A stretch of 32,000 nucleotides of DNA from Nostoc punctiforme PCC 73102. GTDB taxonomy: Bacteria; Cyanobacteriota; Cyanobacteriia; Cyanobacteriales; Nostocaceae. This document shows, in pieces, positions 6,175 to 31,463 of this stretch (its first letter is position 1; each line of letters opens with the position of its first letter). Under the pieces are notes generated by a model that searched no databases, was not told the origin of the DNA, and was given only the letters and a program-made list of their open reading frames with translations. A program made the translations under genes and the position numbers. The stretch covers positions 7,950,001 through 7,982,000 of the forward strand of contig NC_010628.1 of the NCBI RefSeq assembly GCF_000020025.1, read 5' to 3'.

Positions 6175-7488
6175 TTACAACTTCTGCCCTGCATAAATGG
6201 ATCGCACTTCACCATTACGGCGGATGACGGCTTCGCCATTACTAACCTCTACCAATGTCCAACCGCTTTGGCCAATGCTTTCACCCATATTGATGCGGCG
6301 AGTTACGCCATCAATTTTAAACAAAGCGGCAGATTTGTTACCTAACTCTAGCAATCCTTCTAGGGTATTACTCGGAGCAACTGCGATCGCAGTTGCCGGA
6401 TATACTTGTTCCTGGGTAATAGTTGGTTCTGACTCTGGCGCAAGTGCTGCACGTAATGGAACCACTGGTAATGCAGGTAGAGGCTTGGGTGTTTGCCGCA
6501 CAGTAATAGGTGCAGTTCGTCCAGCTATAGGTTTAAGTTCTGCTCGTACAGCCGCCGCTAACATATTGACGGTTACAGGCTTGGCAGCTTGTCGCACCGT
6601 ATTTAGGGCACTTTTCACCATGTTAGGTGGATATGCCTGCAATGCATTGGCAACTTGTGGTAGAAGTGTGGGACTACCAGGAATTGCTGGCAGCGCGTAG
6701 CGCATTGGCGACGGTGCTTGATAAACAGGAACATAGATCCGTTCAACAACGCTGCCAGAACGGTTAGAGGCTGGTGGTGTATTATTGGCCAGAAGTGGAA
6801 GTGGTGGTAAATTACCAGTTATTTGCCCGTTACCAAGGGCTATTTGATTAGTATTTGTCTGACTGGAGAATCCCGAACTGAAAGATTTTTGATTGCCTTT
6901 TAATTCTTGCTTGTCTATAACTGCCAACGCTCCTAGCATATAGTCAACCAAATCTGCCTCAATTTCTGTTTTTCCAGGCAATTGTGATTGCGTTTGCGGC
7001 GCTAGAAGAGCTTGCTGGGTCAAGTTGGGATTTAAAAGATATACGACTCCAGACTGTACCAAGTAGAGAATACCAGTGATCGCCACACCTAAAGTTGTTC
7101 CGACAATCAGCAGTTTGCCCAAAGTCCGACTGCTTTTTTGACGCTTTCTACTAACTGGTTTAATGGTGGTGTTATCAAAGACAACGGTACTCAAGTGCTT
7201 GTTGTTATTTTGAGTAACTGACTGTCCGTTTGGTAAGATAATCTGCGGTATCGTAACTGTTTGCAAAGGCACGTATTCTGGAGGCGAGTCGCGTCGAGCT
7301 TTGTTCTGCCTACCATGCCTAACGGTTTGAGAAGGCAGATTATCACTAACATCCAGAATGTAGTCGATATCGGCAAAGAGTTCATCCATGAGACCATCAG
7401 CATAGTTTTCTATCGACCAAGGCTCGTTGGCGATTAAGTCTTCTGATGGTTCTGGTACTATGAGACGGGTACTGGCTTCTTGTAACAT
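6175..7488 (-). CDS. proline-rich membrane-anchored hypothetical protein
   Basis: 437-aa ORF with an ATG at 7486-7488, one hydrophobic helix (LLIVGTTLGVAITGILYLV), a long P/A/Q-rich linker and a compact C-terminal beta-rich domain (GWTLVEVSNGEAVIRRNGEVRSIY) reminiscent of PilP/GspC-like domains. Confidence 0.6.
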   Translation of the reverse strand: MLQEASTRLIVPEPSEDLIANEPWSIENYADGLMDELFADIDYILDVSDNLPSQTVRHGRQNKARRDSPPEYVPLQTVTIPQIILPNGQSVTQNNNKHLSTVVFDNTTIKPVSRKRQKSSRTLGKLLIVGTTLGVAITGILYLVQSGVVYLLNPNLTQQALLAPQTQSQLPGKTEIEADLVDYMLGALAVIDKQELKGNQKSFSSGFSSQTNTNQIALGNGQITGNLPPLPLLANNTPPASNRSGSVVERIYVPVYQAPSPMRYALPAIPGSPTLLPQVANALQAYPPNMVKSALNTVRQAAKPVTVNMLAAAVRAELKPIAGRTAPITVRQTPKPLPALPVVPLRAALAPESEPTITQEQVYPATAIAVAPSNTLEGLLELGNKSAALFKIDGVTRRINMGESIGQSGWTLVEVSNGEAVIRRNGEVRSIYAGQKL

Positions 7489-16115: not shown

Positions 16116-17192
16116 ATGGTAGATTCCCTCAAAAAACCAGGCTTTGAAGAAATCCGGCCAGGGATTAAAGTCCCGGCAAAAGAAACCCTGTTAACACCTC
16201 GGTTTTATACTACCGATTTTGATGAAATGGCGCGGATGGATATCTCCGTCAATGAAGACGAGTTACAAGCCATTCTCGAAGAGTTCCGCACTGACTACAA
16301 CCGCCATCACTTTGTTCGGGATGCGGAGTTTGAGCAATCCTGGGATCATATTGACGGGGAAACTCGCAAATTATTCGTTGAGTTTCTAGAACGTTCCTGT
16401 ACAGCAGAGTTTTCGGGCTTTTTGCTATATAAAGAACTTGGCCGTCGCTTGAAAGGAAAAAGCCCCGTCTTGGCAGAGTGCTTTAACCTGATGTCACGGG
16501 ATGAAGCACGTCACGCTGGCTTTTTGAACAAAGCTTTGTCGGACTTTAATCTGTCTTTAGATTTAGGGTTTTTGACTAAGAGCCGCAATTATACCTTCTT
16601 TAAACCGAAATTCATCTTTTACGCTACTTATCTTTCTGAGAAGATCGGTTATTGGCGCTACATCACCATTTACCGCCATTTAGAAGCACATCCCGAAGAC
16701 CGGGTTTATCCAATCTTCCGGTTCTTTGAAAACTGGTGTCAAGATGAAAACCGCCACGGCGATTTCTTTGATGCCATCATGAAATCCCAGCCACAAATAT
16801 TGAATGATTGGAAAGCACGGCTGTGGAGTCGGTTCTTCCTGTTGTCGGTATTTGCGACAATGTATCTCAATGACATCCAACGCAAAGACTTTTATGCCAC
16901 CTTGGGATTGGATGCACGAGAATACGACATTCATGTAATTCAGAAGACTAACGAAAACGCCGGTCGCGTGTTCCCGCTAATGCTGGATGTAGAGAATCCT
17001 GAGTTTTATCAGCGATTGGATACTTGTATCAGCAATAACGAGAAGCTGGGTGCGATCGCTAATTCCAACACTCCCAAATTCTTGCAATTATTCCAAAAAC
17101 TGCCACTTTACATCTCCAATGGCTGGCAGTTATTACGGCTGTACCTGATGAAACCGATTGATACTGTTTCTGCTCAAGGGGCAGTTCGTTAA
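16116..17192 (+). CDS. acsF: magnesium-protoporphyrin IX monomethyl ester (oxidative) cyclase
   Basis: 358-aa ORF collinear with known AcsF proteins ([33 protein letters not shown]..., diiron motifs [10 protein letters not shown] and [10 protein letters not shown]). Confidence 0.95.
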
Positions 17193-17249: not shown

Positions 17250-17552
17250 GTCTTAAATATTAGAGGTTAGCCGATTAGTACTGCGATCGCTAATTTGCTG
17301 GCAGGCAAAAATCGAATCTAATCAAAAAACTAGTAGTCTGCCAAGCTAACTTTGCTATGTTAAATTTGGATATAAACGCTCCATTTTTCGGCGAGCATCT
17401 TTGGTTTGAAAACCCCAATAAACACTAGCTTTTTGCTGATTACGTTTTTTCTCCCAAGCGGCAATCTCAGAAGTTAATGTTTCTGCATTAGGAATACGCC
17501 GTTCTAAACATTGGCGAGATAAAACAGATAATTCGATTTCTACCTGATTCAG

Positions 17553-17608
17553 CCCTTCGGGTTCGCCAGTTGCTTCAAGTCGGGGAACCCGCCCAACGCA
17601 CTGGCTCA
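17553..17608 (-). repeat. 56-nt structured mini-insertion inside the transposase gene
   Basis: On the minus strand: tgagccagtgcgttgggcgggttccccgacttgaagcaactggcgaacccgaaggg. Internal complementary pairs are gccagt/actggc and cgggttc/gaacccg. It lies between the TGG (W) and CTG (L) codons. Confidence 0.6.
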
Positions 17609-18101
17609 CCAAGAAGCGTGTTTAGGAGTATAGTGAAACTCTAACTTTTGAATAATTCGACGTGCTTCTTCTGGTGGAAAAACTTCATATAATGCATTGG
17701 GTGTATGAATATTCAAGTTATCAACTACTAAACGAATAACATCGGCATCTCGGTAGGAAACATCTACTAAATTTTTCATTTGTTTAGCAAAATCGGCTTT
17801 AGTTCGACGTTCTGTAACTTCGATATGCCGCCATCCAGCCAAGGGTTGAAAACATGCGAATAAATTTACTGTCCCGTTACGTTTATACTCAAAATCATAA
17901 CGTTCAGGTTGCTCTGGCTGTGGTGGCAAAGGAAGTCTTACTTCTTCTACTAATTGGTATGGACGTTCATCAAAGCAGACTACAGGGCGTTTAGGATCAT
18001 AAGGCTCATTGTATAAATCCAGCACATCTTCCATTCGGAAAACATATTCTGCGTTAACTTCAGGAATACACCATTGTTCTTTCAACCAAGGCTTAATTTC
18101 A

Positions 18102-18109
18102 TTTTTTTT
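18102..18109 (-). other. A8 slippery run, programmed -1 ribosomal frameshift site of the IS630 transposase
   Basis: T8 on the plus strand. The zero frame reads tta aaa aaa atg and terminates 6 codons later. The -1 frame reads through as KKNEIKPW without stops. Confidence 0.6.
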
Positions 18110-18605
18110 AAAGTTTGACGTACTGTTTCATCTGAGATTGAATCTATGATACCAACGTTCACTAAATGATCTGCTAATAATTGCATTGTCCAACGCACTC
18201 TTCCTTCTGGCGGATTAGAACAAGCTGTTGCAATCAAAAATGCTTCTTGCTTTTCATCTAATTTTTTATGTTTTGGTGGATGAACTTCATCCTTTAAAGC
18301 AAAATCTAACCCTCCAATGACAAATTTTTCTCGTATTCGTTGCACTGTTGCAACATGCGCTCTAACTATGCTAGCGATCGCTTGATCCGTTTCTCCTTCG
18401 GAAGCCATCAAAAGAATGTTTGCACGGCTTATGGTTCTTGCCTTATGCTTACCTTTCTTAATTATCGATTGCAGTTGGGAAACTTCATCTTCATTCAAGT
18501 CAACAATGTACTTTTTTGCCATGTTACACCCCGTTTTTGGCTATTTTACCAATTAGAGGTTTTACTTAGCAAAGTTACCTTGGTACACTACTAGAGGACA
18601 ATAGA

Positions 18606-18930
18606 GTTACATCAGGTTACATCGGTTATAACTGGTGCAACCCATATATAGTAAGGCTTTCAGCTAGTGGTTATAGAAAAGGTTACATCAGGTTACATTT
18701 TAGTAGAACAAATGTAACCGCTAGGAGATATACAGGGTAAGGCTTATAGCCATTAGGTTACATAGTTACATCTATTTTAGAGAATAGATATCACCCAACT
18801 ATCTACATAACAACTAATCAGGATTTTGATGTAACTATGTAACCTAATGGCTATAACCTAGACAGGATAAGGGATATAGAGGTTACATTCAGATGTAACC
18901 GGGATGTAACCAAGTGCTAATAATGTAACT
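18606..18930. repeat. iteron/operator array: 13 copies of (G/A)GTTACAT, 7 forward and 6 reverse, often in pairs 8-11 bp apart
   Basis: Forward copies start at 18605/18606, 18615, 18681, 18691, 18756, 18764 and 18881. Reverse copies (ATGTAAC[CT]) lie at 18712, 18829, 18837, 18893, 18904 and 18923. A 29-bp perfect inverted repeat at 18744-18772 / 18828-18856 embeds four of them. Confidence 0.75.
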
Positions 18931-19057
18931 CAAGTAGAGTTAGATCCTGACAATATAGCCTCAAATCCTTACTTGGTAAGCCCTTACCCTTGAATAAGTA
19001 CAATAAAGGTGCTAAGATAACAAAAGGGTTAAGTAAAAACCACTACTCGAACATATA

Positions 19058-19564
19058 ATGAACCCTCAGAACTCCTTTACTAACCCCTATCCTCTACAAG
19101 TGGCCCTAACAGACGCTCAATGGTATGGGTTTCTGGCTGAGGATAAGCTGAATAATCCCCAGACCTTCTATGACATCCACCCGGCACTCAGAGCCATCAT
19201 CAGGGAATGGGTACGCCTAAAAGTCAAACCAACTAAAACCATCAGTAGTCAGAGATACCTAAATGGTATCAAGAGAGCCTTTGGTACTCAAACTAAACTC
19301 TACGTATGGACGGGGGTTATCCTGGGGGCACTGTTGGAGGCAGGATACCGGGCTGAGTTAAGAGGTAACGACTTATGCCTTAACTGTTCCATTAGGAAGC
19401 CAAGTAACCCGTATACGGCTTGGGAGAAATATCGCGCTATAGCCCCTATTTACTCTGAATGGGTACTGGATACCCCCAAAGGCTACTGGCTCCCTGAGCT
19501 TTACGAAGGTATGGATAACATAGCGGCTAAGTATGATCAGAGAACTAGCGCCATCCGCGCCTAA
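19058..19564 (+). CDS. hypothetical protein of the islet (possible iteron-binding/replication or regulatory protein)
   Basis: 168-aa ORF with an ATG start, located 128 bp downstream of the iteron array. No family recognised. Confidence 0.5.
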   Translation: MNPQNSFTNPYPLQVALTDAQWYGFLAEDKLNNPQTFYDIHPALRAIIREWVRLKVKPTKTISSQRYLNGIKRAFGTQTKLYVWTGVILGALLEAGYRAELRGNDLCLNCSIRKPSNPYTAWEKYRAIAPIYSEWVLDTPKGYWLPELYEGMDNIAAKYDQRTSAIRA

Positions 19565-19653
19565 GATGCCCGACAGCGATCGTGAGGTCATTCACCAGAC
19601 TTACCAATGCCTGTAGCCCCTAAAATCCACAGTAAATCCCAGAGGTCACTTAG

Positions 19654-20079
19654 TTATTTCCTTGGGTTTCTGACATGGGGCACTGTCTCTAAAACTTCGT
19701 CGATGACTCTGAGTTGCTTATCAGTGTATGCATAAGATTTGTTCTTGAAATCTCCATTAGGGCCCTTACGGTTAACTCGACGTGGTTTGATGCCATAGAG
19801 TTCTACGAACTTCTTAACCACACGGACGGCTAAAAGGTGGAAATCTCCTTTGGAAACTACTATGTTTTCTTTATCTAAATACTCATTCAGGGTCACTAAG
19901 TCCCTAGCTTCTTCTTTGTCTGCATCATTGAACACGGAATCTGCCACGGCTAGAACAAACACATGTTCTTTCTTCAGGAGGTCTTCCAAGCGATCGATAA
20001 TCTGCTTTTTGGTGAGGTTTTCCAATAAAAATAACTCGTTTACCTCTGTGCTTGATGGGATGTTTAAATAAACTTGCAC
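19654..20079 (-). CDS. hypothetical protein of the islet
   Basis: 141-aa ORF with a GTG start, convergent with 19058-19564. No family recognised. Confidence 0.45.
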   Translation of the reverse strand: MQVYLNIPSSTEVNELFLLENLTKKQIIDRLEDLLKKEHVFVLAVADSVFNDADKEEARDLVTLNEYLDKENIVVSKGDFHLLAVRVVKKFVELYGIKPRRVNRKGPNGDFKNKSYAYTDKQLRVIDEVLETVPHVRNPRK

Positions 20080-20346
20080 GATTTTGATAGCCCCTTGCTT
20101 ACTTTATTAAGTACTTGCTTGCATCAAGTTATACCTAATACTAGCCTGGTTAACCCCGTGTGTCCACTTTACTTTGTTCGACTTCATTTATTACCCACAG
20201 CAAGCAACTAGAGACCCAACGTCGGGTTATCCTGGGGCTTCTAGTGGGTTAAAAAACACTTATTAATACGGCATCCTAAATAAGGCTTTAGAGGCTAAGA
20301 AGCCCCAAGGATAGTACTTTAATGGCACTTGGCGATCGCCATTAGT

Positions 20347-20382
20347 GATGTTTTATCACTAACCGATGTTTTATCGCTAACC
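20347..20382 (+). repeat. two tandem 18-bp iterons gatgttttatc(a/g)ctaacc
   Basis: 20347-20364 and 20365-20382 are identical at 17/18 positions. The first overlaps an agtgat/atcact inverted repeat. Confidence 0.65.
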
Positions 20383-20680
20383 TTGACCTATAAGGGTTTC
20401 AGGGCACAGAGAAGAAGACTGTCAGCCTAGAGGTAAAACCCTTAACTGGTAAGGGTTCCAAGGGTGTCACCATGCGAACTTGAAGCAAAATCTAAGTCAA
20501 CTAATACTCGGCTGGGTCTAAGTCTTATCCTGTAACCATCCTGGGTGTCTTAGGGTTTATTTATCAGCCCCCTAAGTCAACTGAAAGTTATATTTACCCT
20601 CATTGGATGCTGCATATACTAACCCTTGCCCTGTAACCATCCTAGCGATTTTAAGGGTCATTTAGCTGTCATTAAGTGAA

Positions 20681-20701
20681 CTGGAGGTCTAAGACCTCCA
20701 G
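20681..20701. promoter_or_regulatory. 21-bp perfect palindrome ctggaggtct-a-agacctccag upstream of the first RHH gene
   Basis: The 10-bp arms are exact reverse complements, about 120 bp upstream of the ATG at 20820. Candidate operator or hairpin. Confidence 0.4.
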
Positions 20702-20819
20702 TAGCTCAGTTGCGCAATATTACCATCAGTTACCTAGCTGACCTCCCCTTGGCGATCGCACTTGGGCGTTTAGAAATAACTTGACTTATTTAGTTATAGA
20801 AGTAAGTTCTATAACTGAA

Positions 20820-21080
20820 ATGTCTAATCTGATTCAAATGGCTAGAGACGTTAACGGTTACACCAAGGGTAAATGTAGACCCGCAACTAACATCATCAGT
20901 ATCATCAATGACCAACCAAGGCTACAGAAGGACAAGCGCCTAATGGTTCCTATTAGCCATGAGGAACTAGAAGCCGCCCATAGCTTTGCTAGCTCCCTTG
21001 GTGTCTCTACCAGCTATCTGGTCAGACAGTTACTCAAGACCGCTATCGAGTCTCAATGTGAGGTTGGTTATGGCAGATAA
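20820..21080 (+). CDS. ribbon-helix-helix (CopG/Arc-like) protein
   Basis: The C-terminal KRLMVPISHEELEAAHSFASSLGVSTSYLVRQLLKTAI fits a strand-helix-helix pattern. The ATG at 20820 is preferred over the TTG at 20781. The stop overlaps the next gene by 11 nt. Confidence 0.5.
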   Translation: MSNLIQMARDVNGYTKGKCRPATNIISIINDQPRLQKDKRLMVPISHEELEAAHSFASSLGVSTSYLVRQLLKTAIESQCEVGYGR

Positions 21081-22890
21081 CAGAATCCAAGTCACCCTGA
21101 CGGCTAGGGATCTCCTTAGCCCCCAGCTAGGACAAATCAGAAGTAATATTGAGGCTCTAGGGGCTAGTGCTAATATCCGGGTAGGTCTTAGTGACATCAG
21201 GAACCTCGGTCAGGCTGACTTGACCAGATTAAGAACACAGATGGATTCCTTAAAGCCACCCGATAGCTCTCAGGGGTTCATGGGCGCTGCACTATTTGGT
21301 AACTTAGGAGCCTCAGCGATTACCCAGGGTATACAGATGGTAACTCAGGGTATCCAAGCATCTATAGGTGCTATCCAGTCAGCCGCTAGGACTCAAATAA
21401 ATGACTTGGCGCTAGCAGGGAACTTAGCAACGCAGTTGGGGGTAAACTTTGGTAAAGCCAAGGGGTTAGTTGCTGATACCTCTATTGAAATATCTAAAAT
21501 GGCTGAGGCTTTACCAGGGGAAAATGCTGATTACAATGCTATCTTTTCGCAGATATCCGCCACAGTTGCTGGTAATGCCAAAGGTGATGTAGGTAAGTTT
21601 AAAGAAGAGTCTATGGAGCTTACTAAGCGCTTTGGTGTTCTGTCTTCTATCCGTGGACTTGATGCCAATCAATCGGGGTCAGCAATCAACAGGGCGTTAG
21701 CTGGAACTATGGGGCTGTCTGAAGTATTTCAGATTGATATTTTCCAGAAATACCCAATGCTTCAAAGTAGCGTCAGAGATCAGCTAAAAGCCATTGGTAA
21801 AAGTACTGAAGACTGGAAAAGTTTATCAAATGATATGCGATCCAAAATATTACTAACCGGGGCTAAAGGTGCGGTTTCTGATGATACAGTAGCGTCATTT
21901 AGCGGTACTGTGGACTCAATGATCGCTGAGGCTAAATCATCGCTATTTGATGAACGTCGGGGTATCTTTGGGTTCTTAAGAACCTTGGGGTCAATGGGAG
22001 GAAGGTCAACCCTTGATAGCGTTCAAGGCGCTATGCAGTCCTTTAAAGCTTTATTAGAATCCTTGGGATCTATAAAAGGTTTCTCAGTTGACCCGATGGA
22101 AGGCGTAATCAGTGTAATGGACTGGTTCTCTGATCTTGCTGGGTCGGTTAATGGGGTATTAAATGGTGAAAACAGCAGCACTATAACTTCATTTTTAACT
22201 AATACGACTACCGGGTTCTTTGAGGGTTTTAACAACTTAGTAAACCTGGGGCTTAAGGGTATTTCTAATACTAACTGGGGAAACTTAGGTAAACAAGTTG
22301 GGGTCTATATAGGCGACGGGTTTACTAAGATTTTTACTAGGACAGACTGGGGCGCTATATCCCAAATCCTTGTCAAAAGTTTACAAGGTCTGGGCGATTT
22401 TACCTTGAACTTTATCATGGGAGCCGTTGAAGGCAACTTCAAAGAACTAGGGAATGCTTTCAACAGGGTCAAAGATGCGGTTATGACCTGGGCTAACGAT
22501 ACCCTGAAGGTTTTTAATAAACCTGGGGAACTTTTAGAAAACCTCAAAACTAGACCTTTGGCTGCTATTGGGGATACTTTAAAATCCGTAGGCGGTCGAT
22601 TAAATCCCTTGGGTGATAATGGGGTTGTAGGAGCCTTAAAGAACGGCGGAGGGTTCATAGGAGGGATGTTAAATAGTAACCCTATAACGCCTTTGAATCC
22701 TAACAGTTCTAACAGTCCTATTATACCCTTGGAAATCCCTAAACCTCCTGATAATAATAAACAGGCTTTTGTAGCACCCCACGTAATCATAAATGGCACT
22801 CATATGCAAAACCCCCAAGAAATAGCTAATGCTGTAATGGGAGCGATTAATGAGGCTTACGGAAAGTTTAAGGAGGGAAGTTTAGCCTAG
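21070..22890 (+). CDS. phage tail tape-measure-like protein (G/S/N/A-rich, predicted helical)
   Basis: 606 aa from the ATG at 21070 (gagg lies 6 nt upstream). The N-terminus MADNRIQVTLTARDLLSPQLGQIRSNIEAL and segments such as VLSSIRGLDANQSGSAINRALAGTMGL resemble TP901-type tape-measure cores. This is a similarity judgement from memory only. Confidence 0.45.
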   Translation: MADNRIQVTLTARDLLSPQLGQIRSNIEALGASANIRVGLSDIRNLGQADLTRLRTQMDSLKPPDSSQGFMGAALFGNLGASAITQGIQMVTQGIQASIGAIQSAARTQINDLALAGNLATQLGVNFGKAKGLVADTSIEISKMAEALPGENADYNAIFSQISATVAGNAKGDVGKFKEESMELTKRFGVLSSIRGLDANQSGSAINRALAGTMGLSEVFQIDIFQKYPMLQSSVRDQLKAIGKSTEDWKSLSNDMRSKILLTGAKGAVSDDTVASFSGTVDSMIAEAKSSLFDERRGIFGFLRTLGSMGGRSTLDSVQGAMQSFKALLESLGSIKGFSVDPMEGVISVMDWFSDLAGSVNGVLNGENSSTITSFLTNTTTGFFEGFNNLVNLGLKGISNTNWGNLGKQVGVYIGDGFTKIFTRTDWGAISQILVKSLQGLGDFTLNFIMGAVEGNFKELGNAFNRVKDAVMTWANDTLKVFNKPGELLENLKTRPLAAIGDTLKSVGGRLNPLGDNGVVGALKNGGGFIGGMLNSNPITPLNPNSSNSPIIPLEIPKPPDNNKQAFVAPHVIINGTHMQNPQEIANAVMGAINEAYGKFKEGSLA

Positions 22891-22960
22891 TCTAGATGCC
22901 CCCAATACTGCTGTTTGACTTTGGTTGACTTAATAAGTGATAAGGACAGAGACATTACCA

Positions 22961-23239
22961 ATGGAAAAGATTAAGAAGACCAAGCAAACAGCGGTTAGAT
23001 TTGACCAGTCTACCTGGGAATGGTTAGAGCAAGAATCCCTGAGAACTGGTAAGACTCCCTCGGCGTTACTTAGAGAAGGTGTTGAGTTACTTAAGGCTGA
23101 GGTGAGAGTACTGGCTGACCTCAAGGCACAGTTTGAGGCTTCTGGGGTTGCTTATCCGTCTATGAAGACCCAGACAGCCACAGGGATTAGACAGTTGCCA
23201 CTTAGGGGCTTTGAAGTTAACCAAACAGCCAACAGATGA
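22961..23239 (+). CDS. ribbon-helix-helix (CopG/Arc-like) protein
   Basis: MEKIKKTKQTAVRFDQSTWEWLEQESLRTGKTPSALLREGVELL fits a strand-helix-helix pattern and is followed by a coiled tail. The ATG at 22961 is preferred over the GTG at 22937. Confidence 0.5.
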   Translation: MEKIKKTKQTAVRFDQSTWEWLEQESLRTGKTPSALLREGVELLKAEVRVLADLKAQFEASGVAYPSMKTQTATGIRQLPLRGFEVNQTANR

Positions 23240-23320
23240 GACTAGGGGGCACATCGGTAGTAATACAGCCTAAAGTCAACTAATGTTTGACTGAATCTAG
23301 GAAACTCAATGTTTCCCTAG

Positions 23321-23482
23321 ATGGCTAAAGTTATCCGTAATGGTAAAGTAGTTACCTTTAATCCCAATAAGTACCCTAGAGGGTCACACGGTAGATTCAA
23401 AGAAACTCCTGATGCACCTAAAGTCACCCGTGGGGTTCAGTTAACTAGTAAATATTGGCTGAGTTATTGCCAAGCACCTTAA
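23321..23482 (+). CDS. possible 53-aa basic small protein
   Basis: Manual translation gives MAKVIRNGKVVTFNPNKYPRGSHGRFKETPDAPKVTRGVQLTSKYWLSYCQAP. It is preceded by the near-palindrome ctaggaaactcaatgtttccctag. It is below the ORF-track cutoff. Confidence 0.3.
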   Translation: MAKVIRNGKVVTFNPNKYPRGSHGRFKETPDAPKVTRGVQLTSKYWLSYCQAP

Positions 23483-23552
23483 AGTACCCTAAGCTTAAGG
23501 CAGCTTTAAGGCAGATTAAGTCAGTTTTAGACTACTAGATTTGTCTGGCCTA

Positions 23553-23624
23553 AGCCCGTGACGAGGATTGAACTCGTGACCTCACCCTTACCAAGGGTGT
23601 GCTCTACCACTGAGCCACACGGGC
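23553..23624 (-). tRNA. trnT: tRNA-Thr (anticodon GGU)
   Basis: The reverse complement GCCCGTGTGGCTCAGTGGTAGAGCACACCCTTGGTAAGGGTGAGGTCACGAGTTCAATCCTCGTCACGGGCT folds as a 72-nt cloverleaf with anticodon loop TTGGTAA. No encoded CCA. Confidence 0.9.
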
Positions 23625-25976: not shown

Positions 25977-26076
25977 ATAATAGGGTATAGTATGATCTGT
26001 CAAGTTTAGTGCTAACCAACAAAAGCGCCTGAATAGCGTCTGAAACTAGGATAAGCACAAGTTTGACAGATTTACT

Positions 26077-26161
26077 GGAGAGGTGGCAGAGTGGTCGATT
26101 GCGTCCGACTTGAAATCGGATGAGGCTAAAACCTCCGGGAGTTCGAATCTCCCCCTCTCCG
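26077..26161 (+). tRNA. trnS: tRNA-Ser (anticodon UGA), long variable arm
   Basis: GGAGAGGTGGCAGAGTGGTCGATTGCGTCCGACTTGAAATCGGATGAGGCTAAAACCTCCGGGAGTTCGAATCTCCCCCTCTCCG is 85 nt, with anticodon loop CTTGAAA. No encoded CCA. Confidence 0.9.
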
Positions 26162-26535
26162 TTGAATACTTTGTGAATACTAGCAGCCAATATCATCATG
26201 ATTATATCTTGATGATATTGTTCAGTTGCCAGATGAAACCTAATATTTGACAAGAGCTTTAAATATATAGGTATTTTTTAACACATCTACTGATGCCGGG
26301 TTTTTGGCTGGTGTTACTAAGTATAGAAGGCGATAATAATTGCAAAAGGCTTAAGCTTGACTATATGTTTAGAAGCTTAAGTAATGTAAAGCACCTCACA
26401 CTTAAAAGGTTATTTATAATTTATACAATATAATTGAATTTTCCTATTGATACCAAGCCGCCACAAACAGGCTTTTCTACATATAAGGCAGATAGGAAAT
26501 TTTCAACTTTGTAAAATAAGGTAACAAATTTAAGT

Positions 26536-28545
26536 ATGCAAGAACAAATAAAACCTGGTTTCCACGAACAAGTGCAACGAAAATTATACATATTGACTAA
26601 CGAAGAACAGAAGATTCTTCAGAAATTTGGTAATGAATGGTTTGTAACTAGACTAGATGGTTTGAAAATTGGGGACAGAAGTGAATACAAGTATGCCTTG
26701 ATTAAAGCACCTAGAAATTATCAGGAGCTTTTTAATTTTGAAAGAGAGTTAATCATCATTTTTAGTGATTATGAATCTTTTCAGCCTAGATCAACTGACG
26801 CGATTGATGCTGTTTCAGATCAGCTTCAAGATTTAAGAATAGATAAAATCTGTAGTATTATGTTAAGTAAAGATGATAAAATAGAAGAAAAAATAAGAGA
26901 TATTTTAAAAGAATCTCAAGAATCTCAGGTTATAGTTCCAATATCTTATAGCGAAATCTTAAATAATCACAGTGATTCTTATTTTTTAAGGAATAAATTT
27001 AAAACCAATTTTTATACAAGGGACTTGTTTGATTTTCAATCTCCATTAAAAAAAGATTTATACTTTTTTGGGAGAAGCGATATTATTAATAAAATAGTAA
27101 ATAGACATTTTTCTAATGAAAACTCAGGGCTATTTGGATTACGGAAAACAGGAAAGACTTCTGTAATTTTTGGTATTCAAAGGGCACTAGATAAAATAGG
27201 CGCAAAATCAATTTTGATAAGTTGCGATGATACCAGTTTTCAACAAAGAAGATGGAATAAATGCTTACATTATATAATTGTAGAAATAAATAAAAAATAT
27301 AAATTAAATTTACCATTGCAAGCAGAAGATCAATATACAGAAGAAAATGCTTCTCAAATTTTTGCTGAAGAAATTTGTAAAATATATCATATTTTTCAAG
27401 AAAAAAGTATTTTAATCATATTTGATGAAATCGAACGTATAACTTTTAACATTTCTAGTGTTACACATTGGGAAAAGAAATTTGATTTTATATTTTTCTG
27501 GCAAACATTAAGAGCTAATTTTCAAAAATTAAATAATGTTTTCTCTTATTTAATAGTAGGTACTAACCCAGTCTGTATAGAACAATCAAGTATTTTTGGT
27601 AAAGATAATCCTATTTTTCACTCAATACCAATTGAATACTTGCCAAGATTTGATGTACCACAAACAAGAGATATGGTTAGAAAACTTGGTAGAATTATGG
27701 GATTGCAATTTGAGGAAATAATTTATTCAAAATTAACGGAAGATTATGGTGGACATCCATTTTTAATTAGACAAGTATGTAGTTTAATCCATAGGCTCAA
27801 CAATCAACATCTACCAATTACAGTAGATAGAATTACGTATGATAAGGCTAAAAATGAATTTGATAAAAATTATGCTTCTAAATATATTGAGATGATGGTT
27901 AGTGTCTTAAGCGAATTTTATCCTGACGAGTACGATTTACTAGAATATTTAGCCATTGGCGATCTTAACTTTTTTAATCAATATGCTATTGAGTCCACAG
28001 AATATACTAATCATTTGAAAGGTTATGGAATTATCAGTCAAACTAGAGATGAATATGATTTTAAAATAGATGCAGTCAAACAATATTTAATACAAAAAAA
28101 TAAATATAAAAAGGTTAATACAACCAATGAAGATATGTTAAATGAAATATCTCAAAGAAGAAATGCTTTAGAACCAAAGTTAAGAAAAATAGTGCGTACC
28201 CAGTTAAAGGCAAAATATGGAGAGAACCAAGCAAGAGATAAATTACTACTTTCTTTTGGTAAAGAAGAACAAAAAAAGTATAATCATTTAGCTTATAAAG
28301 ATTTGTTCGATCCTGATAAAGTAAATATATATTTTGAAAATCTAAAAAATATAATTAAAAAAGACTGGTCAACTTTTGAACACATTTTTTCAAGGAAACA
28401 AGAGGAGTTTAATTTGAAAATGGAAGCTATAAATAAGTATAGGGCTGATGCACATGCAAAACAGATGACACCGGATAGAATGGGTCACTTTAGAGACTGT
28501 ATGACATGGATTGAAAACCATGTAAACGATTTTTTAGAAGACTAA
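26536..28545 (+). CDS. P-loop NTPase (STAND/AAA, Arch_ATPase-like) with unknown N-terminal domain and C-terminal HEPN-like module
   Basis: 669-aa ORF. FFGRSDIINKIV...GLFGLRKTGKTSV is Walker A (G201-T208). SILIIFDEIE is Walker B (D297 E298). GGHPFLIRQV is a STAND/ORC-like motif. The C-terminal ...LEPKLRKIV...NIIKKDWSTFEHIF...INKYRADAHAKQMTPDRM... has an R-x3-H dyad, resembling Swt1-type HEPN. Confidence 0.75.
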   Translation: MQEQIKPGFHEQVQRKLYILTNEEQKILQKFGNEWFVTRLDGLKIGDRSEYKYALIKAPRNYQELFNFERELIIIFSDYESFQPRSTDAIDAVSDQLQDLRIDKICSIMLSKDDKIEEKIRDILKESQESQVIVPISYSEILNNHSDSYFLRNKFKTNFYTRDLFDFQSPLKKDLYFFGRSDIINKIVNRHFSNENSGLFGLRKTGKTSVIFGIQRALDKIGAKSILISCDDTSFQQRRWNKCLHYIIVEINKKYKLNLPLQAEDQYTEENASQIFAEEICKIYHIFQEKSILIIFDEIERITFNISSVTHWEKKFDFIFFWQTLRANFQKLNNVFSYLIVGTNPVCIEQSSIFGKDNPIFHSIPIEYLPRFDVPQTRDMVRKLGRIMGLQFEEIIYSKLTEDYGGHPFLIRQVCSLIHRLNNQHLPITVDRITYDKAKNEFDKNYASKYIEMMVSVLSEFYPDEYDLLEYLAIGDLNFFNQYAIESTEYTNHLKGYGIISQTRDEYDFKIDAVKQYLIQKNKYKKVNTTNEDMLNEISQRRNALEPKLRKIVRTQLKAKYGENQARDKLLLSFGKEEQKKYNHLAYKDLFDPDKVNIYFENLKNIIKKDWSTFEHIFSRKQEEFNLKMEAINKYRADAHAKQMTPDRMGHFRDCMTWIENHVNDFLED

Positions 28546-29998: not shown

Positions 29999-31463
29999 TG
30001 GGATTTTGGATGAATTCTGTGGCTATTTGTTGTAATTGTTGGCGGTTAATTTTACCTTGGGAGTTACGGGGTAAGTATTGCTGGGGAATCCAATATTTAG
30101 GAATTTTAAATTTGCTGAGTTTGTCTTTGAGTAGGGTTTGAATTTTTAAGGCGGAGATATCTGATTTTTTGGGAATGTAAATCGCTGTTAAGGCTTGTCC
30201 CCAGTGTTTATCTGGGATGCCGATGACACAAATATCGGCAACCATTTGAGTAGCTTGTATAGCTGATTCAATTTCTGCTGGATAAATATTTTCGCCACCT
30301 GTAATAATTTTATCGCTGTTACGTCCGACAATATTTAAATGACCTTGGTTGTCTAAAAAGCCTAAATCATCTACTTGAAAATCAGCTTGATTATCTCTGG
30401 TTATTGGATAGTAACCAAGAGATAAAGATTGAGCATGAATAGTGATATTTCCTATTTGATTAGAATTTAAAATCTCGCCTTGCTGATTGCGAATAGTTAC
30501 TTTGGCATGGGGAAGAATTTGACCACTGCTAATTTTACCACTCAGAAAATCATCTGGTTTAAGGGTGGCAATTTGAGAGGCGGTTTCTGTCATACCATAG
30601 GTCGGTGCTAACCGGATGCGATAAAATCGGGCTTTTTCTAAAAGTTCGTTCCATGCTGGCGCACCTCCCAAAAGTACAGTATTAAATTGGGATAACCATT
30701 TAGTTAATTCTGGATTTTGCAGCAGGCGTTGTAACTGCGTTGGTACTAAAGATATGAAAAATTCTGATTGTTTAATATTCAATATTTGACCAGATTCTAA
30801 TACTTTGAATGGCAGAATAGCTAGTTTACCTCCGGTGATGAAAGAGCGCATAAATTGCATTAAACCGCTAACGTGATATAGCGGCAATACACAAAGCGAA
30901 TTGACTTGGATTAGTTGAAAGTATTCTGTAAATCCTTGTACCGATGAGATGAGAGTTTCCCAGGTGTGGATGGAAAATTTAATTTGTCCTGATGAACCAC
31001 CTGTAGGAATCATAATGCTATTAGGAATTGGGCATTGGCTATTATTATTATGCCCATTCCCCATACTTCGACTTACCTCGACTTCTCTACGAGACGCTAC
31101 GCGAACGCTCGGCACAAGTCGCTCAGTACAAGTTCCCCATTCCCCATTCCCCATTCCCAAAACAATATCTGGGTGTACTAAATCAAAGACTTGTTGCCAT
31201 TCTTGTGTTCCCCAGTCGGGGTTACAAAGAAAAACTGGACAGTTAGCAGCACAAGCGGCAATAAAACTTGCTAAAAATCGTAATGGTTCGCGTTCGGCTA
31301 AGATAATTTTTGGTGGTGTTCCATACGCTGATAATTGTGTTAGTTCTAAATATAATTCTTGAGCTATTTGATTAAATTGACGGCTGTCATAACCGATAAG
31401 CCAATCATCATGAACCAGATTATTAAGGCAGTCTAGAGGTCGTTCCATAAAGTTTGAAACCAC
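29991..31463 (-). CDS. menE: 2-succinylbenzoate-CoA ligase
   Basis: 490-aa adenylate-forming enzyme with [11 protein letters not shown] (P-loop), YGMTE, GDLGFLD and [13 protein letters not shown] motifs, adjacent to menC. It contains a 30-codon repeat-derived insertion. Confidence 0.9.
31053..31154. repeat. 90-bp in-frame repeat insertion in menE, bounded by exact 12-bp direct repeats, with ccccatt heptamer run
   Basis: cccattccccat occurs at 31053-31064 and 31143-31154, exactly 90 bp apart. ccccatt x3 lies at 31135-31155. The core cttctctacgagacgctacgcgaacgc is related to the small repeat at 3317-3346. Confidence 0.7.

Follow-up and report, generated by a model that had tools for sequence, protein, structure and literature searches.

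An iteron array beside a tRNA-Thr gene of Nostoc punctiforme, probably the orphaned replication origin of a truncated integrated element

Results

Organization of the tRNA-Thr islet

The window, i.e., the whole stretch of 32,000 nucleotides of Nostoc punctiforme PCC 73102 analyzed in this work, contains an islet of about 5 kb (18595-23552), whose left end is an array of short repeats and whose right end abuts the 3' end of a tRNA-Thr gene (Table 1); beyond the latter lie tRNA-Tyr and then nadA. Lying directly against the 3' end of a tRNA gene, the islet occupies the classical position of an integrated element. On its left it is preceded by an IS630-family insertion sequence and, further upstream, by an ORF of 358 aa. 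The array begins 11-12 bp after the IS630 end, and 128 bp separate its right end from the ATG at 19058, in line with the initial annotation. A stretch of 700 bp between the 141-aa gene and the 86-aa RHH-like gene is free of genes, and a small ORF lies between the 92-aa RHH-like gene and tRNA-Thr. The 86-aa product, which we take to be an RHH protein from reading its sequence, displayed no Pfam match at E <= 0.01.

Pfam domain searches revealed no integrase and no Rep-family match in the islet, and combined Pfam and phrog searches found in it no ParA, terminase, integrase or transposase other than that of IS630. Furthermore, a second copy of the 49-bp tRNA end (i.e., an attL) was not present within the window. 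All public contigs carrying the 168-aa gene were identical to the window.

Table 1. Coordinates of the features at the locus (positions within the window).
Feature	Coordinates	Strand	Remarks
ORF, 358 aa, upstream of IS630	16116-17192		presumably acsF, judged by reading its sequence
IS630-family insertion sequence	17330-18594	-	35-nt inverted repeats 17330-17364 and 18560-18594; HTH_32/HTH_29 and DDE_3 domains
Iteron array	18605-18930	.	13 RGTTACATY copies in five clusters; same order and spacing in L156 and L174
Non-iteron box RTAAGGSWTW	18651-18660; also 18737-18746, 18867-18876	+ (18651 copy)	between iteron clusters
Inverted-repeat left arm	18744-18772	+	inner iteron pair 18757, 18765 facing the centre; iterons 100% conserved in L156
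AT-rich spacer, 55 bp	18773-18827	.	candidate DNA-unwinding region; AT-rich centre also in analogous arrays
Inverted-repeat right arm	18828-18856	-	inner iteron pair 18829, 18837, opposite orientation
168-aa protein, phrog_9576 family	19058-19564	+	winged-helix-like core (predicted)
141-aa islet protein	19654-20079	-	kept in related Nostoc elements as 144-146 aa; no family assigned
86-aa RHH-like protein	20820-21080	+	gene call in Logan contigs; upstream of 606-aa gene; conserved with L007, L009, L010
606-aa all-alpha protein (low-confidence model)	21070-22890	+	marker gene of Nostoc tRNA-Thr elements
92-aa RHH-like protein	22961-23239	+	weak phrog_4113 match
tRNA-Thr(GGT)	23552-23624	-	3' 49 bp (23552-23600) = attachment-site core, repeated at far end of intact relatives

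Sites and geometry of the array

The initial annotation had described seven forward and six reverse sites in this region, mostly in pairs spaced 8-11 bp apart, at a density beyond chance. By exact counting, the GGTTACAT cluster comprises 13 copies of the heptamer GTTACAT within 18606-18929, with 7 on the + strand (starting at 18606, 18616, 18682, 18692, 18757, 18765 and 18882) and 6 on the - strand (18712, 18829, 18837, 18893, 18904 and 18923), as claimed; the pairs were also recovered as listed, with the earlier coordinates off by +/-1 and 7-mer and 8-mer starts mixed. Direct reading with one flanking base on each side gives the consensus RGTTACATY. The whole window holds 16 copies of GTTACAT, in comparison with 4.4 +/- 2.1 in 100 dinucleotide-preserving shuffles of the same window, none of which reached 16 (0/100), and only 3 copies lie in the 31.7 kb outside the array, so that the density is indeed far from random expectation.

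The sites are arranged in five clusters (18606/18616; 18682/18692/18712; 18757/18765; 18829/18837; 18882/18893/18904/18923), whose centres follow one another at distances of 76, 74, 72 and 66 bp, and their orientations can be written as ++ / ++ - / ++ [AT-rich centre] -- / + -- -, with 7 iterons to the left and 6 to the right of 18773-18827. The centre is the most AT-rich part of the array (27-32% GC vs 37-42% on the flanks). The inner pairs, 18757+/18765+ on one side and 18829-/18837- on the other, face each other within an inverted repeat whose arms are 100% complementary over 29 nt and separated by 55 nt, exactly as the initial annotation had it. As single-stranded DNA, the array region has a predicted fold of -28.3 kcal/mol (z = -10.3 vs shuffles).

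The array is not a CRISPR, a point on which the initial annotation was right: its units are of 8 bp, in mixed orientation and irregularly spaced, as opposed to direct repeats of 23-50 bp with uniform spacers. Two other candidates were discarded, namely an Rfam let-7 match (38.5 bits, below the gathering score of 53.5), which corresponds to the hairpin of the inverted repeat, and NtcA sites, since by eye the pairs read GTA-N8-TAA and not GTA-N8-TAC. A blastn search with 18590-20100 against plasmids and phages gave no match.

Related elements at the same locus in other Nostoc genomes

The 606-aa protein has 16 homologs, almost all of them in Nostocales; it had no match in a PDB profile search, and its model (pLDDT 47) was too poor for a structure search. 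Relatives in Nostoc sp. DedQUE04 (L007), a metagenome contig (L009) and Nostoc sp. GCA_036917535 (L010) are elements located at the same tRNA-Thr/nadA locus and bounded by a repeat of 49 bp, 100% identical to window 23552-23600, both att copies being seen in each of them. A tyrosine integrase lies just inside the far repeat, and the repeat coordinates give sizes of about 11-15 kb. Their middle parts differ, L009 and L010 carrying a NikA-like RHH gene and a 1040-aa ResIII/DEAD helicase, and L007 a 294-aa protein; thus, by comparison of their sequences, the tRNA-Thr element family has exchangeable replication modules. Neither GTTACAT sites nor a homolog of the 168-aa protein were present in L007, L009 or L010.

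Orthologous arrays in two other Nostocales

An intact member of the tRNA-Thr element family was identified in Nostoc sp. DedQUE12b (L156), organized as a left flank like that of L007 and L009, a 49-bp attL, the integrase, a NikA-like region, a VapE-like helicase and the array; attL is the att copy seen in this case, and the fetched stretch ends before the tRNA. The helicase (542 aa; PF05272, E = 1.7e-45) ends at 6531, and the first of the 12 GTTACAT sites of the array (6561-6884) lies 30 bp after its stop, with a further GTTACAT at 6488, inside the 3' end of the helicase gene. The array of L156 is 77% identical to window 18614-18899 and displays the same site order and orientation. The same array is found in [Scytonema hofmanni] UTEX 2349 (L174), preceded there solely by the last 46 codons of the helicase, and it adjoins an ORF that we presume, from its sequence, to be CpcT-like. 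No phrog_9576 gene lies beside the arrays of L156 and L174.

Identity between the window and L156 is 93% at iteron positions, reaching 100% in the core 18680-18900, and 69-70% at spacer positions (iteron vs spacer, Fisher p = 3e-6). As the iterons are better conserved than the spacers, this substitution pattern indicates that they are under selection.

A helicase remnant was searched for in the window by tblastn and not found (E >= 1.6), and the left flank of IS630 consists of the 3' region of the presumed acsF, which is unrelated to L156. Given these two observations, the helicase/integrase side was lost by deletion or rearrangement and not simply interrupted, with IS630 located at the break. 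The window copy would therefore be a truncated remnant of a tRNA-Thr-integrated element.

The conservation of the sites bears on the least probable of the explanations considered, that of a dispersed genomic repeat or MITE devoid of a dedicated function. The 113-bp foldback 18744-18856 does resemble a MITE, and a scan of the genome collection with the paired motif GGTTACATN{0,3}GTTACATN{45,75}ATGTAAC returned 102 matches in comparison with about 8 expected by our own estimate. However, more than half of these matches (about 59/102, judged by title) come from a few MAGs of Verrucomicrobia, Omnitrophota, Binatia and Peribacteria type, and the sole array among such MAG-type matches that was read fully (L143) is a 9-bp tandem repeat, GTTACATGR, different in kind. 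Moreover, the GTTACAT sites are concentrated within the arrays (12/14 in L156 and 12/12 in L174, with the 3 outside copies in the window mentioned above), and selection on the iterons speaks against a repeat of this nature; hardly any weight is therefore left to this explanation.

Partition centromeres, packaging (pac/cos) sites, arm-type sites of recombinases and binding sites at transposon ends are likewise mixed-orientation clusters of short repeats. The resemblance of the array to such sites and the tRNA association of the islet would fit a function of this class. Conversely, the islet lacks the ParA, terminase, integrase and non-IS630 transposase that would act on them, and the att core of the intact relatives is the 49-bp tRNA repeat, which in L156 lies 3.7 kb from the array. 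On inspection, attP arm-type sites were rejected, the att core lying elsewhere, as were end sites of Tn7/CAST or Mu, with a wrong orientation pattern and no transposase present: the array is symmetric on both sides of an AT-rich centre, in contrast to the one-directional ends of Tn7 and Mu. A function of this class is thus highly improbable, only slightly less so than a dispersed repeat.

The 168-aa protein and the phrog_9576 family

An exhaustive, profile-free search among 1.8 billion representative proteins recovered 16 relatives of the 168-aa protein, and 15/17 of the aligned sequences matched the phrog_9576 profile (best E = 1.7e-23; window protein, E = 0.0012), which corresponds to a phage family without known function (PHROG profile annotation). 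The protein had no Pfam match and no match by tblastn against phages, a word-index search found only itself, and a search for related loci with alignment A2 in the genome and metagenome collections returned nothing.

Its AlphaFold2 model (pLDDT 79.7, pTM 0.75) has a core of helix-strand-helix-helix-hairpin topology. Foldseek gave no match at E <= 0.001; the low-scoring matches were winged-helix proteins, including RFX5 and the origin-binding domain of P4 alpha (1ka8, E = 0.96). P4 alpha and Rfx are two winged-helix references for SF3 replication proteins (PMC2777425). In the viral Foldseek library, about 80 residues matched phage and NCLDV primase-helicases with a probability of up to 0.99 and an rmsd of 2.3-3.6 A, these targets being annotated as DNA primase or D5-like helicase-primase, with the matched target region not specified. 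The model thus points weakly to a winged-helix fold resembling the C-terminal part of primases, and position and predicted fold together suggest an origin-related function. Conservation within the family is highest in the helix that occupies the recognition position (NGxFKGAMLxAGY), a segment devoid of basic residues. Since the arrays of L156 and L174 lack a family gene, the protein is not needed next to the origin and would be an accessory rather than a required partner. Regarding the 141-aa and RHH proteins, which the initial annotation had included among the possible binders of the array, nothing points to either, and they probably do not bind it.

Arrays next to helicase and family genes in other loci

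Arrays were also found beside homologs of the 168-aa protein, of which the three closest that have upstream sequence (L017, L018 and L019) were read. In L017 (49% identity) there are 15 AGTTACCT-type sites at -471 to -78, and in L019 (39% identity) 11 GTCACCCATCA sites at -447 to -143; both arrays have the same offsets as that of the window and other iterons, and the orientation order of the L019 sites is almost superimposable on that of the window. Upstream of the L017 array, an ORF fragment of 67 aa represents the C-terminus of a helicase belonging to the family of that of L156 (E = 1e-17, 64% identical over 42 aa); this fragment had no indexed homolog. The gene directly upstream in L019 is a divergent ORF of 85 aa and not a helicase, on a contig of just 1.4 kb. 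L018 displayed only three GAGACTAT sites, and its partial downstream ORF showed no similarity to the L009 helicase.

The non-iteron box RTAAGGSWTW occurs 6 times in the window vs 1.6 expected, and it is shared, as ATATATAGTAAGGGTTTC, with L019, whose iterons are unrelated; L156 has it as well. It is not general in the viral loci and is enriched only in cyanobacterial arrays, by which an AAGG box common to all origins of this type was rejected.

Scanning of viral contigs with a sub-alignment of the 168-aa family yielded 68 more loci. The densest 8-mer cluster comprised at least 4 copies in 34 viral loci, and in 25/34 it lay at most 600 bp upstream of the family gene; after removal of near-identical loci (own count), this applied to 13/21, in comparison with about 1.4 that a target of 600 bp within a locus of 9 kb would be expected to give. 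In about 41/70 loci the array is immediately preceded by the end of an ORF on the same strand measuring 300 aa or more, and the gene before the array is a primase-helicase in 9/10 sampled loci as well as in L014 and L020, including D5_N/DUF5906/Pox_D5, NrS-1-type, Prim-Pol+DUF927+HTH_56 and VapE-like types. Furthermore, the grammar ++ - ++ [AT] -- + --, i.e., outer pair, reverse site, inner pair, AT-rich stretch of 55-85 bp and then the mirror image, recurs in L087, L046, L070, L069 and L064.

L046 corresponds to S. pyogenes prophage 315.2/Javan501, and its array lies between a primase-helicase, whose annotation points to homology with gp506 of S. thermophilus phage Sfi19, and a gene of the phrog_9576 family. 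By tblastn, close homologs of this family gene were found only in S. pyogenes prophages and one Lacticaseibacillus phage, and none in Sfi21-type phage records. L046 and L070, both from Streptococcus, have the same TGTTCCA iterons with unrelated helicases (17% identity overall, 8% in the C-terminal domain), which calls for caution on a rule that would place iteron specificity in the helicase C-terminus only. Attempts to correlate the iterons with either the helicase C-terminus or the family protein gave conflicting cases.

These data bear on an alternative in which the array is an origin read by the adjacent 168-aa winged-helix protein, which would recruit any available helicase, so that in N. 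punctiforme array and gene would together still function as a recognition module. In the window, in L017 and L019 and in 25/34 viral loci, the array is followed first by the family gene, the iterons differ between family members of 39-49% identity, the helicases of L046 and L070 are unrelated despite their common iterons, and the AF2 topology with weak, recurrent Foldseek matches to primase-helicases, 1ka8 and RFX5 would suit such a reader. On the other hand, L156 and L174 have the GTTACAT origin without a family gene, in about 29/70 viral loci neither helicase nor array precedes the gene, and the family proteins of L046 and L070, at 40% identity, hardly exceed the background of the family (33-38%). 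The absence of basic residues from the most conserved, recognition-position helix is unexpected for a specificity determinant, and no Foldseek match attained E <= 0.001. We therefore regard the 168-aa protein as an unlikely reader of the array.

Still more doubtful, with a small probability in our estimation, is that the array is no origin but a multi-operator region serving transcriptional control by the 168-aa protein or an RHH protein of the islet. The array is upstream of the 168-aa gene, which reads away from it, arrays co-vary with family members, and RHH-like genes are present in the islet. Nevertheless, 128 bp separate the ATG from even the closest site, no sigma-70-like promoter was found on the + strand between array and gene, and the AT-rich dyad centre, the position directly after helicase genes and the arrays of L156 and L174, which lack the gene, all fit an origin better.

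Discussion

The array most likely represents the replication origin of a small Nostoc element integrated at tRNA-Thr, of the SaPI, P4 and Streptococcus-phage type. The assignment is based on position, anatomy and analogy: its ortholog directly follows a VapE-like helicase gene, the iterons are under selection as judged by their conservation, the layout in the window is that of SaPI origins, with the helicase as neighbor in the ortholog, and analogous arrays follow primase-helicase genes in other loci. The initial annotation had left the choice between an iteron origin of plasmid or phage kind and a multi-operator switch; the former gains from these lines of evidence, and the latter is weakened by the array occurring without the 168-aa gene in two other Nostocales genomes.

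According to the proposed mechanism, short iterons in opposite orientations flank an AT-rich centre and would be read by the C-terminal winged-helix domain of a self-loading SF3 helicase (VapE/D5/P4-alpha-like), as in characterised systems; helicase hexamers would then assemble on both sides and open the AT-rich centre. In intact relatives, the VapE-like helicase would fire the array in this way. The N. punctiforme copy would be silent in cis, acting only with a helicase of matching specificity supplied in trans. Since the window lacks the cognate helicase gene, the fragment 18595-20080 probably would not replicate autonomously, contrary to what the initial annotation had envisaged.

Some observations count against the origin reading, namely that the window is devoid of the defining neighbor, the helicase gene; that iterons of 7-8 bp exceed the penta- and hexanucleotides of SaPIs; that L046 and L070 have common iterons with unrelated helicases; and that the array and family gene of L019 have no helicase directly upstream, on its 1.4-kb contig.

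A further proposal, to which we assign a low probability, is that the origin relic and the neighboring winged-helix protein have been retained because they are useful, e.g., as a decoy that titrates replication proteins brought in by related elements or phages, in the manner of the Sfi21 'PER' origin, and that phrog_9576 proteins would generally act as accessory factors that bind origins (as regulator, competitor or loader), their genes immediately following SF3-helicase origins in the phages and satellites of several phyla.

With the origin reading, the repeat cluster of N. punctiforme would be explained as a decayed mobile-element origin at an IS630 breakpoint, and the Nostoc family of tRNA-Thr integrative elements obtains a concrete candidate origin. 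The modules swapped between strains contain a VapE-like helicase with the GTTACAT origin, an SF2-type helicase of 1040 aa, or a protein of 294 aa. One grammar, 'pair - reverse site - pair / AT-rich / mirror image', is common to putative origins from cyanobacteria through Firmicutes and could aid automatic origin annotation in phage satellites, and phrog_9576 is flagged as a widespread protein family beside such origins. What is modestly new is that the host is a cyanobacterium, that replication modules can be swapped, that the origin grammar extends across phyla and that the phrog_9576 family lies next to origins.

Comparison with known systems

SaPI origins consist of 6-12 iterons, penta- or hexanucleotides, located directly downstream of rep around an AT-rich centre, with about half of them on each side and at least 2 per side in opposite directions, and they are bound by the C-terminal winged-helix domain of Rep (PMC9371898). 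The array agrees in iteron number, its 13 heptamers in 325 bp being one more and slightly longer than in SaPIs, and the AT-rich centre with about half of the sites on each side and the opposed inner pairs are both found in the window. The position directly downstream of the helicase is found in L156 and L017, and not in the window, where IS630 lies 11-12 bp upstream. The likeness to SaPIs and PICIs extends to the host elements, which are integrated, have a tyrosine integrase and measure 11-15 kb, and to the variation of iterons between related elements. In contrast to SaPIs, the iterons are of 7-8 and not 5-6 bp, the VapE-like helicase is not closely related to SaPI Reps, the host is a cyanobacterium, the helicase is missing in the window, and neither a helper phage nor capsid or terS genes were identified.

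The iterons of the P4 origin are octamers (TGTTCACC) in both orientations. P4 alpha has its winged-helix domain C-terminal to the SF3 helicase (PMC2777425). The proposed helicase would share this design, in which a winged-helix domain for origin binding follows the SF3 helicase, and the 168-aa model weakly resembles 1ka8, at an E of 0.96 that is not significant. Unlike the array, P4 uses ori together with a distant crr, and alpha carries a DnaG-type primase.

In the replication module of S. thermophilus phage Sfi21, a non-coding element of 302 bp acts as origin, and in multicopy as a phage-resistance decoy (PMC6356513); in most Streptococcus phages, the predicted origin is located just after the replication module (PMC13575424). 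The array resembles this PER in being a non-coding, repeat-rich candidate origin of about 300 bp belonging to a replication module (PMC6356513, PMC13575424), and the homologous module of prophage 315.2 (L046) has an array with the same grammar as the window. The Streptococcus iterons, in turn, are TGTTCCA and belong to another phylum.

Tycheposons of Prochlorococcus target tRNA genes and have an inward-facing tyrosine integrase at one end, with a compact module for replication (primase/helicase, also of VirE type) beside it, and a cargo that varies (bioRxiv 10.1101/2020.12.28.424599). The Nostoc elements resemble tycheposons and PICI-like elements in general design, and in contrast to tycheposons their cargo consists of the 606-aa protein and RHH-like genes.

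Classical plasmid iterons are direct repeats of 17-22 bp on one side of the unwinding element, accompanied by DnaA boxes and a WH1-WH2 Rep gene, whereas the sites of the window are of 8 bp, in both orientations and symmetric about a centre. In such plasmid origins (RepA/TrfA/pi), repeated initiator sites lie beside an AT-rich unwinding region (PMC4980987). By analogy with these systems, the array is most likely a truncated origin of the SaPI/P4/Sfi21 kind, as opposed to a classical Rep-iteron origin, a CRISPR or an operator bank, and most likely constitutes a well-preserved relic of a known kind of origin and not a new kind of system.

Candidate replication origins and GTTACAT arrays in other loci

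In many of the phage or satellite contigs examined (L020-L087), a gene encoding an SF3 primase-helicase is followed by a candidate iteron origin and then by a member of the phrog_9576 family, to which the 168-aa protein of the islet belongs, as the first gene (examples in the table below). Despite differing iterons, the origins predicted in these viral loci display a common grammar, '++ - ++ [AT] -- + --'. Two Streptococcus-type loci have TGTTCCA iterons in common (L046 4632-4842 and L070 4367-4637), although the helicases of the two loci, at 17% identity, are not related and the phrog_9576 proteins share no more than 40% identity. A Firmicute array in Streptococcus sp. ST14 (L102 2105-2420) carries the GGTTACAT iteron, identical to that of the candidate Nostoc origin, and includes a AACCATTGATAT box also found in L064, L063, L087 and L070.

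A GTTACAT origin array like that of the window was observed in [Scytonema hofmanni] UTEX 2349 (NZ_KK073768.1; L174 4673-5163). In this locus the helicase is reduced to its last 46 codons and lies beside a CpcT-like chromosomal gene; this array is a second relic of the same candidate GTTACAT origin, independent of the relic in the window.

In the scan for paired GTTACAT sites (L089-L190), MAGs of Verrucomicrobia, Omnitrophota, Binatia and Peribacteria gave matches on many separate contigs each. In the single array of this set that was read from end to end (L143 7281-7450), a 9-bp unit, GTTACATGR, is repeated 19 times in tandem and gives way to CATGCAACC units; this array looks unrelated to the Nostoc origin, even though both have the heptamer in common.

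Other features of the islet and its surroundings

The 606-aa protein of the islet (21070-22890) is all-alpha, with a structure model of poor quality, and was found solely in Nostocales and metagenomes. In one locus (L012 3960-6327) the protein encoded next after its homolog matches Phage_base_V weakly, a neighborhood hinting at a possible phage-tail, tape-measure-like ancestry. The islet also includes a gene-free stretch with several repeats and further copies of the TAAGG box (RTAAGGSWTW), the second motif between the iteron clusters; an Rfam search of this stretch returned no matches, and it may have a regulatory role or encode an RNA.

Coordinates of features in the window and of example arrays in viral loci
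Feature	Sequence	Position	Remark
Stretch without genes, 700 bp	window	20080-20780	within islet
18-bp tandem repeat	window	20347-20382	in gene-free stretch
46-nt direct repeat	window	20518-20563, 20619-20664	in gene-free stretch
HIP1 sites (2)	window		in gene-free stretch
Further TAAGG boxes (2)	window	20280, 20390	in gene-free stretch
Very AT-rich stretch	window	26000-28545	GC 27-33%; contains 669-aa ORF
TGGGGAA heptamer run	window	31057-31208	
Iteron array	L046	4617-4955	helicase-origin-phrog_9576 order
Iteron array	L087	4685-4964	same order
Iteron array	L069	4725-4973	same order

The IS630 copy at the break of the islet may be frameshifted or inactive, since its transposase (17355-18522) is split into three ORFs of 146 aa (HTH), 159 aa (DDE_3) and 85 aa.

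The AT-rich stretch is probably a second islet gained horizontally. Its 669-aa ORF, for which no Pfam or PHROG matches were obtained, comes right after tRNA-Ser(TGA) (26076-26162). Finally, a TGGGGAA run is also present in the Scytonema locus (L174 1806-1849), and both runs resemble the short heptamer repeats that occur in tandem in heterocystous cyanobacteria.
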